Shown: positions 36,931-46,506, counted from the stretch's first letter. The stretch is DNA of 46,506 nt from an uncultured Clostridia bacterium (GCA_964600525.1 CAZRJY010000001.1:1-46506), one strand, 5' to 3'. The notes: generated by a model not told the origin, from the sequence alone. Made by a program: numbers and translations.

Positions 36931-39708
36931 TTAATTTTGGGGACGCGAAAGTATTATGGTTTCGCTTCTCGTAGGATAAGTTGCGTGCTTGATTGAAAGC
37001 TTGTAAACTTCGTTTAAAGCGAACTCGAATTGGAAGGTTTCGTCGTTCCTGCCCGAAACGTACTCGCTTGTCAATACGTGCGTTTCGGCGTTATAGGTGT
37101 AGTTGTATATGCACGTCAATGTGCTGGAACCGTCGGTAACTTCCACTTTGAAAGTGCCTGTGGTGCTGTCCGAAACGTCGGGATTAACCGTCACTTTTAC
37201 GTCCGCGGGTCTGAGAGCGCCGTTTTCGTTTATTTTTATATAATTGAACCTGCCATTATACTCGCCCGAGAACATACCCTCTACCGAAGGCGCCTCCACC
37301 ACCTTAATTCTTATGTCGGTGCTCGCCACGGGGGTTGAGCCGTTCATTATCGTCGAATCGATATAAACTTTGGCGCCGTTGCTGTTGGTGGTAACTTTAA
37401 GCGGAGTAATTTTGCTTACCGTAATCGGTTTGCCTGCATTGTCTACTCCGTCGATATTGTCTTCGAGTTTGAAGTACGAACTGTAAGTGTTGGAAACCGA
37501 GGTTACAAAGCTGTCGTCAACGTATTTCGCCTCCTCGGAGGTAGCCGTGGCACGCACGTACAGCGGCTGACCCACGTACAGCGTTACGGGTTCTTTACAC
37601 TCCGTCCAGACGTGCGTTTCCGTTCCGTTGGCGTCGGAATACGTATACACGTAAGGAATAAGATTTGTGGGGTTACCCTTCTTTATATCCATCTTGATTT
37701 CGCGTTCGCACTTGCCGCTCACCGTACGCAGTATAAGGGATAAATCGTCGCCCGCGTACTGCGCGTTGAAAAATACCGTATTGTTGCTGCGGTTGAAATT
37801 TCCCACTATATGGTACGCGTTCTGGTCGAAATCGGCTTCGCCCGTATAGCTCAGCTCTATCTCCGTCGTCTTGGTTTTAAGGAACACGCGCAGAGGGTCG
37901 AATTCCAGCTTTGCCGTTTCGGCGGGTTGAACGTTGGATATGTTGAATATAACGTTGGTGTTTGCCTTTACTTCGATTTTTTCGCCGTCCTCAATCTTCT
38001 TGCCGCCGTACGTTACGTCGAACGACTGAATATATACGCTTTCGGGGGGATAAGGGTTTGCTTCAACCTTCTCGCCCTCCGCTTTCAAGGTGTTGTTGAA
38101 CTCTACCACGCGGATTGCGATAAAGGAGTGGTCCGCTTCGTAAACGTCGTCGGTGCCGTCGTACTTTTTATCGCCCTTTTCGTAGTAGTACTTTCTTAAA
38201 TCGCCTTCCTTCCAGCCCTGCGGAACGGGTCTTCCGATTTCGTTGCCGAACCTGTCGATAAGGGTCGTGCCGTCGGGCTTCTGTTTTACGCCTTCCACAA
38301 GTATTGATTTTACGATAAGATGCTTTATTTCGTTGCCGTCCTCGTCGGTCGCAACTACTTTGTCGCCGTGTTCGTCGAGCACGAATTTGCCTTCCTCGTC
38401 GGTGAGATAGGTATACTCGTATTTGAGACTGCCGTCCTCGTTCCTCTCGTAGTCCGCCTCGTACAAATCCTCGCTCGTTTCGGGGTCGAGAGGATAAATT
38501 TCACCGAAAATCACGTCGCCGTCCGTATCGAAAATAAGCTCGCCGACGTTGGTGCCGTCAAACGAATTGGCAAGCATAAACGCACGGATAATCTTGGTCC
38601 TTACCGAAAGCGTTTTGATTGCACCCGATGCGTAAAGCGTGAAATTCACGGTGTAACGGCAGAAATGCGTCTGCTCTTTTCGGCTGAACGAGAAACTGCA
38701 TACGTACTCGTTATTGGACGTCTTTACGAAATTGTCCTCGTACTTGATAGCCGTGTCCGACTGCGACGCGTTGTAATAAGTCAAAAGCGTGTCCTCGGCG
38801 CCGTAAGTTCTGCGCATGCCGCCGCCCGACTCATATCCGTAACCGAGTAAATCCTGCTCGGAAACGCCCTCGTCGATGCGGGGGTCAATCTTGACTTCGC
38901 CGTATTCGGCTTTCCAGCCTTCGGGGGGATTATCGGGGTCTTCGGGCTCGTTGGTAATTACCGTCTGCACTTCTGCGGAAATTCCGAAAGGCTTGCCGTT
39001 TTCGTCGCGTGAATACCAGAAATCCCTTCTGTTGCCGTCGTCGTGAACGCGCACGTAATTGTCGCCGTAGTAATTGCTGAAATTGCTGGAAAACAGCTTT
39101 GCGGTAGGGTCGTATTTGTCGGAATTTTGGTCGTATACGGGGTCGTCGGGGTCGCCCGTGACGTATCTGCCGTTGCTCTCGCGTATCAAATCGTGCAGCG
39201 ACGAACCCAGAAGCGCCGCGTCCTCGACGGTCTCCACCGCCGTGCGTTTGGGCAACTGTATATCGAATTCCACGTTGCCCGCAGTGTGCGCATATACAAA
39301 GTGACGGCTGCCCGCCGAAATTATCGTGGGCTTTGCGGTCACGGGGCTCGAAACGTAGCCCGTACCAGCCTCGGTTACAACGGGCAAAGTAGCCTCGGCA
39401 ACGTGCGAAGCGTCGAGCTTGCAGGTTCTGGTCGCCTTGCCCTCTTTGCTTTCGGTGGGATATTCGTTGATTTCCCAGTCGTTATAGTCGTGGGCGTCGG
39501 GGTTTATAGGAATTACTTCCGCAATAACGTGGCCGCACACGCATTTACCCGTCCTCTGACCGGGGGCGACGCAGGTCGCCTCGTAGTCGGTTGTCCAGTT
39601 GGGCGCGTGCTGGTGTCCGCCCTTGTTGCAGCCCGCAAGAGCGGTTGCGCCGAGCGTTGCCGCCATTACGAGAGATGAGAACATTGTCAAAATCTTTTTG
39701 CTTTTCAT
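36931..39708 (-). CDS. large lipoprotein, function unknown (N-terminal His/Cys-rich modules)
   Basis: 925-aa ORF. Signal peptide plus lipobox: LVMAATLGATALAGC. The N-terminal region HAPNWTTDYEATCVAPGQRTGKCVCGH...HDYNDWEINEYPTESKEGKATRTCKLDASH looks like short Cys/His modules seen in Firmicute surface proteins. A rho-independent terminator follows. Confidence 0.88.
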   Translation of the reverse strand: MKSKKILTMFSSLVMAATLGATALAGCNKGGHQHAPNWTTDYEATCVAPGQRTGKCVCGHVIAEVIPINPDAHDYNDWEINEYPTESKEGKATRTCKLDASHVAEATLPVVTEAGTGYVSSPVTAKPTIISAGSRHFVYAHTAGNVEFDIQLPKRTAVETVEDAALLGSSLHDLIRESNGRYVTGDPDDPVYDQNSDKYDPTAKLFSSNFSNYYGDNYVRVHDDGNRRDFWYSRDENGKPFGISAEVQTVITNEPEDPDNPPEGWKAEYGEVKIDPRIDEGVSEQDLLGYGYESGGGMRRTYGAEDTLLTYYNASQSDTAIKYEDNFVKTSNNEYVCSFSFSRKEQTHFCRYTVNFTLYASGAIKTLSVRTKIIRAFMLANSFDGTNVGELIFDTDGDVIFGEIYPLDPETSEDLYEADYERNEDGSLKYEYTYLTDEEGKFVLDEHGDKVVATDEDGNEIKHLIVKSILVEGVKQKPDGTTLIDRFGNEIGRPVPQGWKEGDLRKYYYEKGDKKYDGTDDVYEADHSFIAIRVVEFNNTLKAEGEKVEANPYPPESVYIQSFDVTYGGKKIEDGEKIEVKANTNVIFNISNVQPAETAKLEFDPLRVFLKTKTTEIELSYTGEADFDQNAYHIVGNFNRSNNTVFFNAQYAGDDLSLILRTVSGKCEREIKMDIKKGNPTNLIPYVYTYSDANGTETHVWTECKEPVTLYVGQPLYVRATATSEEAKYVDDSFVTSVSNTYSSYFKLEDNIDGVDNAGKPITVSKITPLKVTTNSNGAKVYIDSTIMNGSTPVASTDIRIKVVEAPSVEGMFSGEYNGRFNYIKINENGALRPADVKVTVNPDVSDSTTGTFKVEVTDGSSTLTCIYNYTYNAETHVLTSEYVSGRNDETFQFEFALNEVYKLSIKHATYPTRSETIILSRPQN

Positions 39709-39725
39709 ATAAGTTTACTCCAAGT

Positions 39726-45857: not shown

Positions 45858-46506
45858 TTCAGTATCCCCCCGCCCGTAAGATTTTCGAAGAACAGCTTGC
45901 CCACGGGGTCCTCGTCGCAGACTAAAATATAGTCCGCGCCGCGCGCCGCGCAGTAGTCGCGTATTCTGCCCGTGGCGTATTCGACCGCCTTTTTATAAGC
46001 CTGCGCAATTTCGCGCGTAATATTTTTGCGGTAGTATTTTCCGCTGTCCTCGCTGTCGAAAAAGTGCATCTTTCCGCGCGCTTTCGGGTGCAATTCTTCC
46101 TTCGAAAGCACCTGCACGCACAGAACGTGCCTTTTCTTGCCCGTCAGGTGGTCGATTGCCGCCTCGTAATCGTTGTCGGTTAAAAAGTCGGAAATTATTA
46201 TCGACATACCGTCGCCGTAACCCACCGTCGAGGGCACGATTGCGTCGGATATATAGCTGTCGCCCGAAAAATTAACTTCGTTGAGCGCGTTAATCGAGCT
46301 TATATACGCCTCTTTTCCGAGCATACCCGAAATTACGGCGTTTAACTGTTTGTTCTGAACGGTATAAACGGAAACCTTGTCCATTTCGCACACGGAAAGA
46401 TAGGCGAACGCCGCCGCGATTTTAAGCGCCTGTTCGTCTTTCTTTGCCTTTCCGAAACCCATTGAATTGCTTGCGTCGATATAGATGCGGGTGTGCATCT
46501 GCCTCT
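45854..46506 (-). CDS. DUF58-family (vWA-like fold) protein, N-terminal part outside the window
   Basis: The reading frame stays open upstream of the track's M at 46498 (…RQMHTRIYIDASNSMGFG). The DxSxS segment IYIDASNSM and the protein's position directly before BatA-like genes match the DUF58 member of MoxR-DUF58-vWA operons. The expected MoxR ATPase would lie beyond 46506. Confidence 0.75.
   Translation of the reverse strand, partial: RQMHTRIYIDASNSMGFGKAKKDEQALKIAAAFAYLSVCEMDKVSVYTVQNKQLNAVISGMLGKEAYISSINALNEVNFSGDSYISDAIVPSTVGYGDGMSIIISDFLTDNDYEAAIDHLTGKKRHVLCVQVLSKEELHPKARGKMHFFDSEDSGKYYRKNITREIAQAYKKAVEYATGRIRDYCAARGADYILVCDEDPVGKLFFENLTGGGILK

Follow-up and report, generated by a model that had tools for sequence, protein, structure and literature searches.

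A variant of the Bat/MoxR envelope systems with predicted lipoproteins in uncultured gut Clostridia

Results

Gene order and limits of the operon

The window analysed here, a stretch of 46,506 nucleotides from an uncultured Clostridia bacterium (GCA_964600525.1, CAZRJY010000001.1:1-46506), carries five co-directional open reading frames on its minus strand, namely a DUF58 fragment and the genes designated B626, V920, L504 and L925 (Table 1). All five were found again at the coordinates that a first-pass annotation of this DNA had given. The annotation had also described every junction as translationally coupled, which holds for three of them: overlaps link DUF58 to B626 (-4 nt), B626 to V920 (-23 nt) and V920 to L504 (-4 nt), but L504 and L925 are separated by a spacer (+17 nt). 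Across loci, the genes overlap at the DUF58/B junction in 54/54 cases, at B/V in 55/55 and at V/L504 in 39/56, with a gap of at most 30 nt in the remaining loci of the 56. The DUF58-B626-V920-L504 block is tightly coupled, and its gene order is fixed. A strong intrinsic terminator, the best terminator-like site of the region, begins 19 nt past the L925 stop codon and closes the operon.

In relatives, the full unit reads X-MoxR-DUF58-B626-V920-L504-(second lipoprotein), an order kept in all of the approximately 70 loci with sufficient flanking DNA. The portion X-MoxR-DUF58-B-V-L504 is present in 56/56 informative species-level genome loci, and the same order recurs in loci found from L504 seeds, in those found from V920 seeds and in in-clade metagenome loci. 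As judged from these orthologous loci, the operon is conserved and has seven genes, X-MoxR-DUF58-B626-V920-L504-L925, of which the window holds the five distal ones; its hosts are uncultured monoderm gut Clostridia.

Table 1. Coordinates of the operon features and of the redoxin module in the window
Feature	Coordinates	Strand	Remarks
DUF58 gene, 3' part	45854..46506	-	Open at window edge; Pfam and orthologue alignment
B626	43977..45857	-	Pfam BatA and VWA_2; three TM segments
V920	41237..43999	-	Pfam VWA_2, two stretches; three TM segments
L504	39726..41240	-	Lipobox FAGC; constant lipoprotein partner (predicted)
L925	36931..39708	-	Lipobox LAGC; variable second lipoprotein (predicted)
Intrinsic terminator closing the operon	36888..36912	-	11-bp stem, 9 GC pairs, T-run
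1001-aa AhpC/TSA-redoxin lipoprotein	7417..10422	+	Pfam
547-aa Fer4_5 4Fe-4S membrane protein fused to redoxin	12583..10940	-	Pfam
291-aa TM protein	13460..12585	-	Homologues downstream of L504 in relatives

DUF58, MoxR and gene X

The DUF58 fragment aligns with residues 79-294 of 294-aa orthologues (60-97% identity); the window edge cuts off its first 78 codons together with the MoxR gene and gene X. Pfam recognises its family (PF01882) both in the window fragment (E-value 1.6e-13) and in a full-length orthologue (2.7e-29). The protein has the MIDAS motif DASNS (46463-46477), no transmembrane (TM) segment was found in full-length orthologues, and on these grounds it is taken as the cytoplasmic, vWA-like partner of MoxR. 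Because the window stops inside DUF58, both MoxR and X are assigned to this genome from the orthologous loci. The MoxR-type ATPase anticipated upstream directly precedes DUF58 in all relatives whose upstream DNA extends far enough; at an orthologous locus it matches AAA_3/AAA_lid_2 (Pfam, 5e-60), with a secondary match to bpMoxR (5e-15). Gene X is a conserved orphan membrane gene with three TM segments, located upstream of MoxR in relatives.

The membrane-anchored vWA proteins

The product of B626 is recognised by Pfam as carrying a BatA N-terminal domain (PF07584, 4.8e-12, 46.6 bits against a cut-off of 25.9), a match shared by 24/24 orthologues, and a VWA_2 domain (4.2e-11, 43.8 bits), while NCBIfam reports TIGR02226 (two_anch, 9e-5). 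Hydropathy places TM segments at residues 6-24, 58-76 and 600-618, and the vWA domain contains the MIDAS motif DGSGS (45564-45578). Pfam, motif and hydropathy thus agree with the initial description of a 626-aa protein with a BatA-type N-terminus, a MIDAS and a C-terminal TM segment. The resulting layout is a BatA double-TM region, a vWA domain predicted to face outward, about 400 aa of further ectodomain, the C-terminal TM segment and a tail, which is invariant (ADWxVYCYEQYQLR). This tail and the cytoplasmic loop are the best-conserved blocks of the protein.

V920 contains two vWA stretches (VWA_2, 3e-28) and gives a weak Filamin match. Its TM segments, again by hydropathy, are at residues 12-30, 40-58 and 881-899. 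The first reading is upheld as regards the two MIDAS sites, DVSYS in vWA-1 (43760-43774) and DTSRS in vWA-2 (42647-42661), the C-terminal TM segment and the basic tail. It had also likened the N-terminus to that of B626; the double-TM layout is indeed shared, but neither the BatA domain nor TIGR02226 gives a match in V920. The protein runs from a TM hairpin through vWA-1, a middle region, vWA-2 and an Ig/filamin-like region to the C-terminal TM segment and tail, the middle region being GATase1-like in some orthologues (precomputed PF07090).

Three TM segments and a positive-inside bias occur in 54/54 B626-type and 55/55 V920-type proteins. For the B626 type, K+R average 7.3 in the loop between TM1 and TM2 but 0.8 beyond TM2 (54/54 homologues), and for the V920 type 7.9 in the C-terminal tail (55/55). 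From hydropathy and charge bias, the vWA domains of both proteins most likely face the outside of the cell, in line with the outward, doubly anchored arrangement suggested at the outset and predicted here in every homologue. This placement agrees with that of the BatA-type protein BB0173, the vWA domain of which has been mapped experimentally to the periplasm (PMC5700661).

None of the four MIDAS DxSxS motifs varies (100% conservation) among about 55 orthologous loci, which represent about 55 species. Conservation peaks in the cytoplasmic loops and tails and declines steadily outward. Distances are 0.27 for MoxR, 0.44 for DUF58, 0.92 for B, 1.05 for V, 1.40 for L504 and 1.75 for X. In correlations of the distance matrices, V920 and L504 did not stand out as a pair.

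A constant and a variable lipoprotein

Both L504 and L925 are predicted to be lipoproteins by signal peptide and lipobox. The L504 lipobox FAGC (41160-41171) and the L925 lipobox LAGC (39628-39639) each end at Cys27, a residue that does not vary among the family members compared (71 for L504, 34 for L925). In L504, a Pro-rich linker leads into a pair of beta-sandwich domains; the C-terminal domain, of alpha/beta type, is conserved and contains the motif F-N-D-G-N-G-x-A-E ... S-D-E-D-S-Q-W. It has no sequence match in Pfam, NCBIfam or PDB; its AF2 model (pLDDT 88.8) gives domain-level Foldseek matches only, to RG-lyase beta domains, C-CPE/collagenase PPC and DUF3823. L925 starts with a Cys/His module (C46, C56, C58, H73, C96, H102), is all-beta in its central region and ends in tandem Ig-like domains. 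No sequence match was found for it in Pfam or PDB, and its AF2 model (pLDDT 86.4) matches tandem Ig-like structures only (TMq <= 0.14). Sequence and structure comparisons identified no metal or catalytic site in either protein. The two had been regarded as lipoproteins of unknown fold, a view that AF2 and Foldseek do not bear out, as both are largely made of recognisable beta-sandwich modules. Nor is L504 a small orphan family, as had been assumed, since it comprises 936 clusters (50% identity, E<=1e-3).

The genomic setting distinguishes the two lipoproteins. A homologue of L504 directly follows a V920 homologue in 56/56 informative genome loci and in the metagenome loci as well, at identities down to 25%, with one L504 locus recovered per genome assembly. 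This constant adjacency gives L504 the vWA neighbour that the first-pass annotation required of it and supports the idea of a dedicated lipoprotein partner. A low-GC sister lineage has X-MoxR-DUF58-B-V without L504 and with another lipoprotein upstream; therefore, the core does not need L504. The L925 family numbers 37 clusters in a word-indexed search and is detectable after L504 in about 46/56 loci, being replaced or absent elsewhere, although some second lipoprotein follows L504 in about 51/56. By these sequence-based counts, L504 is the constant member and L925 the variable one.

In low-GC relatives a redoxin lipoprotein fills the second slot, and a 4Fe-4S/redoxin membrane protein is encoded after it. 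The window has such a module as well (7417..13460), which lies outside the operon and is possibly linked to the cassette. Homologues of its three genes directly follow L504 in seven low-GC relatives (L066-L070, L073, L075), in which the product of the gene after L504 is 24-30% identical over 700-1040 aa to the 1001-aa redoxin lipoprotein (E 1e-39 to 1e-74). In L067-L070 the redoxin gene is followed by homologues of the 291-aa TM and 547-aa Fer4_5+redoxin proteins (52-60% identity). In three loci of the main clade (L023, L035, L040) a distance of 7-8 kb separates the cassette from the module downstream, compared with 24-36 kb in the window; the module was not found within 10 kb of the cassette in the L504-less sister lineage.

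Discussion

Relationship to known MoxR-vWA systems

The cassette belongs, as a variant, among the Bat/MoxR envelope systems, which are poorly understood; it does not amount to a new type of system. The Bat-like core proposed in the first reading stands, as DUF58, BatA and vWA domains are recognised by Pfam and MoxR is found in relatives. None of the three outcomes that would have overturned that reading was observed. A MoxR-type ATPase, DUF58 and BatA-type membrane proteins are likewise combined in the Bat operon of Bacteroides fragilis, in bb0170-bb0176 of Borrelia and in batABD of Leptospira. The order MoxR (BatI) then DUF58 (BatII) is that of the cassette relatives, and B626 matches the BatA arrangement of a double-TM region, vWA/MIDAS and a C-terminal TM segment. 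The cassette departs from these operons in its monoderm host, in its two- to threefold longer vWA proteins (B626 with 626 aa, V920 with 920 aa and two vWA domains) and in the addition of X and of one or two dedicated lipoproteins. BatB is a second short BatA-like vWA protein; V920 shares its TM layout but has 920 aa and lacks a BatA/TIGR02226 match. To our knowledge, there is no agreed function for Bat-type systems.

The closest outgroups are long-form cassettes of environmental bacteria, composed of MoxR, DUF58, BatA/vWA(+DUF7408) and vWA(+GATase1_like). Three of them (L128, L130, L144) have the same four-gene order, with proteins of 620-790 and 770-1030 aa. They differ in that their DUF58 is at most 37% identical and in lacking X and lipoproteins of the L504/L925 type, while the window proteins fall below the DUF7408 and GATase1_like thresholds, although PF07090 is recorded for several V920 orthologues. 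No TPR (BatC/BatE) or BatD family match was obtained in any cassette protein, X included. The lipoproteins had been interpreted as standing in for the TPR proteins of Bat operons, an idea that is not supported: the nearest outgroups have no TPR genes either, and the lipoproteins are therefore better read as lineage-specific additions than as replacements.

Sets of MoxR and DUF58/vWA proteins act on extracytoplasmic or membrane clients (PMC12276312, PMC13036017, PMC7159879). In the MxaRSACKL system, MxaR (MoxR), MxaS (DUF58/vWA) and the vWA proteins MxaC and MxaL are needed for Ca2+ incorporation into PQQ methanol dehydrogenase, an extracytoplasmic client whose genes belong to the same cluster (PMC12276312). 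The cassette resembles it in design, a likeness that is not demonstrated homology, with MoxR, DUF58 and two more vWA proteins beside a putative extracytoplasmic client. The Mxa client is a Gram-negative periplasmic enzyme, whereas the candidate clients here are lipoproteins of no recognised cofactor, and no methanol dehydrogenase-like gene (MxaF/MxaI) occurs in the window or related loci. The PFNA cluster of Bifidobacterium (pkb2-fn3-MoxR-duf58-tgm) likewise links MoxR-DUF58, in a Gram-positive gut commensal, to a polytopic membrane protein and to a surface protein that is species-specific and evolves fast; it differs by its transglutaminase-like membrane partner, its Ser/Thr kinase and a surface FN3 protein rather than a lipoprotein.

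A possible mechanism and its alternatives

It is proposed, with a probability of about 0.6, that the operon encodes a trans-membrane MoxR/vWA machine which serves L504 and a lineage-variable second lipoprotein. A cytoplasmic MoxR hexamer, together with DUF58 as a vWA-type adaptor, would grip B626 and V920 by their near-invariant cytoplasmic loop and tails, and probably those of X as well. ATP-driven remodelling would then be relayed through the membrane to the ectodomains, which are anchored on both sides and whose three MIDAS sites may bind acidic residues of the lipid-anchored partners. In this way the machine could assemble, metal-load or keep active L504 and the second lipoprotein, which would be L925 here and the redoxin lipoprotein in low-GC relatives; these beta-sandwich-rich, fast-evolving lipoproteins would represent the functional output at the cell surface. 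The mechanism has its precedents in MxaRSACKL, where a periplasmic enzyme is loaded with Ca2+, and NorQD.

The core might instead assemble or regulate an extracytoplasmic redox/aerotolerance system that exports reducing power; L504 would be a scaffold or adaptor, and the ancestral partner would be an extracellular redoxin lipoprotein that a 4Fe-4S membrane protein supplies. This is considered unlikely, even though redoxin lipoprotein and Fer4_5/redoxin homologues follow L504 in low-GC relatives and the three main-clade loci have this module at a distance of 7-8 kb from the cassette. Adjacency could be accounted for by shared ancestry of gene order; neither in the window nor in the majority of main-clade loci is the module adjacent, it is lacking within 10 kb in the L504-less sister lineage, and the L925-type proteins of the second slot have no redoxin domain. 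In work summarised in PMC3557215, Tang et al. (1999) saw bat mutants rescued by reducing agents and suggested that reducing power is exported; a system of this kind was first proposed for the Bacteroides Bat operon. In Leptospira, bat mutants had no phenotype, including under oxidative stress (PMC3557215). Somewhat less probable again is the more specific form, in which a MoxR-powered machine originally assembled or activated an extracellular thiol-redox lipoprotein, supplied by a 4Fe-4S membrane protein, with L504 as obligate outer adaptor, an arrangement that would still be intact in the low-GC relatives. If true, it would give the 25-year-old reducing-power idea for Bat a concrete molecular basis and would name extracytoplasmic clients for a Bat-type system. 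We know of no such client identified for any Bat-type system. A regulated surface adhesin or receptor, in which MIDAS would bind host or microbial ligands while MoxR/DUF58 switches affinity from inside in an integrin-like manner, is quite improbable. It would suit the three invariant MIDAS sites predicted to face outward, the tandem Ig-like domains of L925, the PPC/C-CPE-like binding-type modules of L504, and the lipoproteins being the fastest-evolving conserved genes save X, as expected of exposed proteins; moreover, BB0172 of the Borrelia Bat cluster binds integrin alpha3beta1 (PMC5700661), and the PFNA cluster couples MoxR-DUF58 with a species-specific surface FN3 protein. The fold matches are nevertheless generic (TMq <= 0.2) and give no ligand, and known MoxR/vWA systems perform assembly or metal insertion, not adhesion (PMC7159879, PMC12276312, PMC13036017). 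Since the vWA ectodomains, by prediction, are anchored twice and lie near the membrane, beneath the wall, partners in cis are favoured over distant ligands.

That the lipoproteins are passengers, the functional unit being MoxR-DUF58-B626-V920 only, is very unlikely. The core does run without L504 in the sister lineage and in the environmental outgroups, and this genome has many large lipoprotein genes, but L504 is found solely directly after V920 in every informative locus, usually overlapping the V920 stop, at a single locus recovered per genome assembly, and the second slot keeps a lipoprotein in about 51/56 loci though its family changes. Most strongly disfavoured, and scarcely credible, is an anti-phage or conflict system with the lipoproteins as sensors or effectors. 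The MoxR-vWA ternary conflict systems (Kaur, Burroughs, Iyer, Aravind 2020; PMC7159879) share the MoxR and vWA pair and fast-diversifying extra components with the cassette, whose outer components also evolve fast and whose MoxR has the secondary bpMoxR match. The vWA domains here differ in being membrane-anchored and, by prediction, outward; Pfam detects no VMAP, iSTAND, FtsH, beta-propeller or effector domain in the cassette, and PADLOC is negative save for weak P-loop matches. The cassette is instead held in stable chromosomal synteny throughout the clade, unlike a patchy defence island.

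Operon organization and gene content

To our knowledge, the widespread MoxR-DUF58-BatA/vWA operons have been without an agreed function or client since 1999. The present operon is a variant which ties such a core to one invariant lipoprotein, the start codon of which overlaps the preceding stop codon, as well as to a second, swappable one. It differs from the known MoxR-DUF58-BatA/vWA envelope systems by three undescribed protein families, absent from Pfam: X, an orphan gene preceding MoxR, and the lipoproteins L504 and L925 (504 and 925 aa), encoded by the last two genes. So far, uncultured gut Clostridia and related low-GC lineages are the only sources of the three families, and full-text literature searches returned no description of the variant. 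The variant nominates candidate extracytoplasmic partners for this class of MoxR/vWA systems, together with a possible redox link.

The ORF call bore out, with small corrections, the five-gene arrangement and the MIDAS motifs (the DxSxS metal sites of vWA domains) of the first-pass annotation, the motifs being located at the expected codons. The successive junctions, 5' to 3', measure -4, -23, -4 and +17 nt. Past the L925 stop lies an 11-bp GC-rich hairpin with a T-run, and the gene beyond this terminator has its own AT-rich upstream region; a promoter/terminator scan revealed nothing above shuffled expectation except this strong terminator, and Rfam detected no RNA family in the whole window. 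Opposite-strand ORFs in the region were dismissed as shadows inside the long minus-strand genes. L504 and L925 matched nothing in Pfam, NCBIfam or PDB sequences. An exact-sequence look-up gave no record for the 626-aa BatA/vWA protein (B626), look-ups of L504 gave short contigs only, none reaching MoxR, and a tblastn search of plasmids with the 920-aa double-vWA protein (V920) gave no match.

Features of the window and of related loci (L followed by three digits below 200 denotes a locus)
Feature	Location	Strand	Length	Remarks
Operon part	36931-46506	-		five co-directional genes
DUF58 fragment	first gene, open at window edge	-	last 216 codons	Pfam 1.6e-13; aligns with residues 79-294 of 294-aa orthologues
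B626		-	626 aa	BatA N-terminal domain and vWA domain, both above Pfam thresholds
V920		-	920 aa	two vWA domains (Pfam)
L504		-	504 aa	lipoprotein signal peptide (FAGC) ending at Cys27
L925		-	925 aa	lipoprotein signal peptide (LAGC) ending at Cys27
Cys/His module of L925	39400-39630		residues ~28-110
Lipoprotein and adjoining surface protein	24020-36615	-	1567 and 2622 aa
Opp-type ABC transporter	15086-24027	-
Redoxin/4Fe-4S module	7417-13460
TM protein	13460..12585	-	291 aa	adjoins 547-aa gene
Polytopic membrane protein	12583..10940	-	547 aa	Fer4_5 4Fe-4S, fused C-terminal redoxin
Redoxin lipoprotein	7417..10422	+	1001 aa	AhpC/TSA-redoxin CxxC domain
X, locus L004	1347-2951
X, sister-lineage locus L108	7082-8956
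Lipoprotein upstream of X, L103, L108, L122	~2200-7000	same as X	1200-1400 aa
Lipoprotein upstream of X, L073	2812-6996	same as X	1200-1400 aa

Conservation of the gene order

Look-ups seeded with L504 homologues, from 61% down to 29% identity, exhibited the same order each time: X (~515-560 aa, no Pfam domain), MoxR (AAA_3, 5e-60), DUF58 (294 aa), a BatA/vWA protein (~625 aa), a double-vWA protein (~875-925 aa), an L504 homologue and a large protein without a Pfam domain. When the L504 alignment was scanned over species-representative genomes, 60 loci were obtained, all from metagenome-assembled Clostridia, with labels including Christensenella-like, Ca. Coproplasma, Borkfalkiaceae and Scatosoma. 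In tblastn searches of the 56 loci extending far enough upstream, X, MoxR, DUF58, B, V (the homologues of B626 and V920) and L504 were in every case contiguous on one strand, and two look-ups that started from V920 homologues (40% identity) gave the same picture. The DUF58/B and B/V junctions overlap in every locus, and the V/L504 junction overlaps in 39 of the 56; of the others, all except one have a gap of ≤30 nt. The operon is real and strongly conserved. The window itself ends inside DUF58, and the MoxR gene which had been anticipated upstream of it is, given the constant order across loci, as good as established for the source genome. L504 homologues had also been expected to occur normally with a vWA neighbour, and in the loci surveyed none was found away from a V920 homologue. 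X occupies equivalent spots in all related loci, always preceding MoxR.

Since the word-indexed search with V920 listed in-clade proteins only, outgroups were taken from a metagenome scan seeded with DUF58, in which three layers were separated. The in-clade metagenome loci likewise possess the full X-to-L504 order. A sister group of low-GC, human gut loci (L103-L119, L122), with 52-56% identity in DUF58 and ~27-35% in B and V, is arranged as [~1200-aa lipoprotein]-X-MoxR-DUF58-B-V, and nothing related to L504 or L925 was found downstream of V. On this evidence, L504 is an accessory of one large branch, and a lipoprotein can also be placed at the opposite end of the operon. The upstream lipoprotein of low-GC lineages lies directly before X and is the sole lipoprotein of the sister-group operon, where its members share ~32% mutual identity and contain repeated modules of ~110 aa; one sister-group locus (L106, GC 0.45) showed no upstream lipoprotein within its bounds.

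Three environmental loci (L128, L130, L144), with DUF58 identities of ≤37%, carry MoxR, DUF58, a 620-790-aa BatA/vWA protein and a 770-1030-aa vWA protein, and neither a TPR gene nor X was found in them. The BatA/vWA protein of L130 contains DUF7408, the vWA proteins of L128 and L130 contain GATase1_like, and PF07090 is on record for some V920 orthologues. Judged from these TPR-free cassettes and the PF07090 assignments, the core belongs to a widespread long-form class with long B and V proteins, in contrast to the Bacteroides form with its short BatA/BatB and TPR proteins. The earlier proposal of lipoproteins in place of TPR proteins thus holds with regard to the dedicated lipoproteins, but not to a replacement: the outgroups are also free of TPR genes, and the lipoproteins and X are better read as additions.

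Topology and conservation of the membrane proteins

Exactly three hydrophobic segments are present in 54/54 B-type and 55/55 V-type homologues, and none in DUF58. The loop between TM1 and TM2 of B contains on average 7.3 Lys+Arg, versus 0.8 in the 15 residues past TM2, and the C-terminal tail of V contains 7.9, versus 1.4 before TM3. By the positive-inside rule, this bias would place the vWA regions of B (~520 aa) and V (~820 aa) outside the membrane, tethered at both ends, in agreement with the first-pass annotation. The vWA domain of the BatA-type Borrelia protein BB0173, which has the same three-TM plan, has been mapped experimentally to the periplasm (PMC5700661). X also has three TM segments; its cytoplasmic loop is conserved, and its helical ectodomain (~380 aa) evolves fast. 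A profile search of PDB sequences with X yielded signal-peptide or helical-bundle noise only. X of the sister lineage, unlike that of the main clade, ends in ~200 aa of low-complexity sequence in which G, N, Q, D and S abound.

The DxSxS motifs of all four vWA-type domains are invariant across ~55 species, and conservation within B626 and V920 peaks in their cytoplasmic stretches, namely the BatA loop (KNKYTEQTI.STYLWTLSERFLKRKNPI), the B626 tail (ADWMVYCYEQYQLR) and the V920 tail (VRKLKWEDIKSLF). The mean pairwise distance increases from inside to outside (MoxR 0.27, DUF58 0.44, B 0.92, V 1.05, L504 1.40 and X 1.75). In partial correlations of the mirror-tree style, the membrane and outer components all co-vary similarly (0.55-0.71), and no binding pair was singled out.

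The two lipoproteins

The L504 family is not tiny: at E≤1e-3, an exhaustive profile search collected 936 clusters (50% identity), of which 330 reach E≤1e-30, and a word-indexed search collected 83. Its structural model (pLDDT 88.8) comprises a signal helix, a disordered Pro-rich linker, two β-sandwich domains and a C-terminal α/β domain (~305-504), where most invariant polar residues (E456, D473, E479) are located. Foldseek found likeness only at the level of domains, to rhamnogalacturonan-lyase β domains, the C-terminal domain of C. perfringens enterotoxin, collagenase PPC and DUF3823, and the viral library (BFVD) gave tail-fibre-type sandwiches only. As the matches in PDB and BFVD are generic β-sandwich/Ig ones with TMq≤0.2, no function is transferable. 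A 503-aa lipoprotein without a Pfam domain, which precedes the Opp transporter, is unrelated to L504 despite its like size, paralogy being ruled out by blastp.

L925 is narrower in distribution (37 clusters) and is the variable one of the two: in ~51/56 loci, L504 is followed by a large lipoprotein, usually bearing the N-terminal Cys/His module of L925, and in the most distant loci the second lipoprotein is undetectable or of another family. The model (pLDDT 86.4) is all-β with C-terminal tandem Ig-like domains, and has Fabs, PAD N-domains and a protocadherin as its sole fold matches. The module, with invariant C46, C56, C58, H73, C96 and H102 and the pattern H-x-H/Y...W...ATC..G.R.G.C.(x)CG...H.Y, is found again, often as CxxC, at the N-terminus of the second lipoprotein of most relatives; it is unmatched in Pfam and may represent a zinc knuckle or a redox motif. 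Profile searches of PDB sequences with either lipoprotein returned signal-peptide or helical-bundle noise only, and Pfam searches of all family members and isolated sub-regions gave sub-threshold DUF6252 and Filamin only.

Proposed mechanism and alternative roles

MoxR hexamers act with vWA co-factors, which bind target peptides via the MIDAS, either to remodel the targets or to insert metals (PMC7159879; NorQD, PMC13036017). MxaR, MxaS and MxaC/MxaL correspond to MoxR, DUF58 and two vWA proteins, and are needed for Ca2+ loading of a periplasmic enzyme (PMC12276312). Combining this literature with the operon anatomy, we propose that MoxR and DUF58 would engage the invariant cytoplasmic loop and the tails of B626, V920 and X and drive conformational changes across the membrane, whereby the outward MIDAS domains may bind, load or hold the lipoproteins; their action could be assembly, metal loading or affinity switching. 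For a cytoplasmic ATPase to grip its membrane partner, current MoxR/vWA models would require elements of the type represented by conserved motifs such as the BatA loop and the YCYEQYQLR tail of B626.

A role in redox chemistry or aerotolerance is rather unlikely, even though a redoxin/4Fe-4S module is found recurrently near the cassette. The low-GC loci that possess L504 (L066-L070, L073, L075) have, as their second lipoprotein, a homologue of the window's 1001-aa redoxin lipoprotein (24-30% identity over 700-1040 aa), and in L067-L070 it is followed by homologues of the 291-aa TM protein and the 547-aa Fer4_5 protein (52-60% identity). The module lies 7-8 kb past the cassette in three main-clade loci (L023, L035, L040) and 24-36 kb from it in the window, beyond the large surface-protein genes and the Opp transporter. 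This adjacency could reflect inherited gene order or a functional tie to extracellular thiol-redox chemistry; the latter would be reminiscent of the export of reducing power originally proposed for Bat proteins (Tang et al. 1999, summary in PMC3557215). The recurrence of this adjacency provides a handle on the old "aerotolerance" hypothesis. Homology of L504 or L925 to the redoxin lipoprotein was rejected: L504 gave only a weak match (probability 60%) at the signal peptide and first β-sandwich, and L925 none.

That the operon encodes a regulated adhesin is unlikely, and that the lipoproteins are mere passengers is improbable. A defence system is highly improbable and is disfavoured because PADLOC argues against a known system and no components of the ternary system are present. 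The proposed action of MoxR and the vWA proteins on the lipoproteins remains the preferred reading.

Neighbouring genes in the window

The 1567-aa lipoprotein carries a weak GLUG motif, and the 2622-aa surface protein comprises a subtilase (Peptidase_S8), PA, fn3_5, Big_2, six BspA-type LRR_5 blocks, a C-terminal TM and an acidic tail; synteny of the two genes downstream of the cassette is confined to the closer relatives (L004, L005, L008). The solute-binding lipoprotein of the Opp transporter is unusually long (889 aa), with SBP_bac_5 limited to its C-terminal half.
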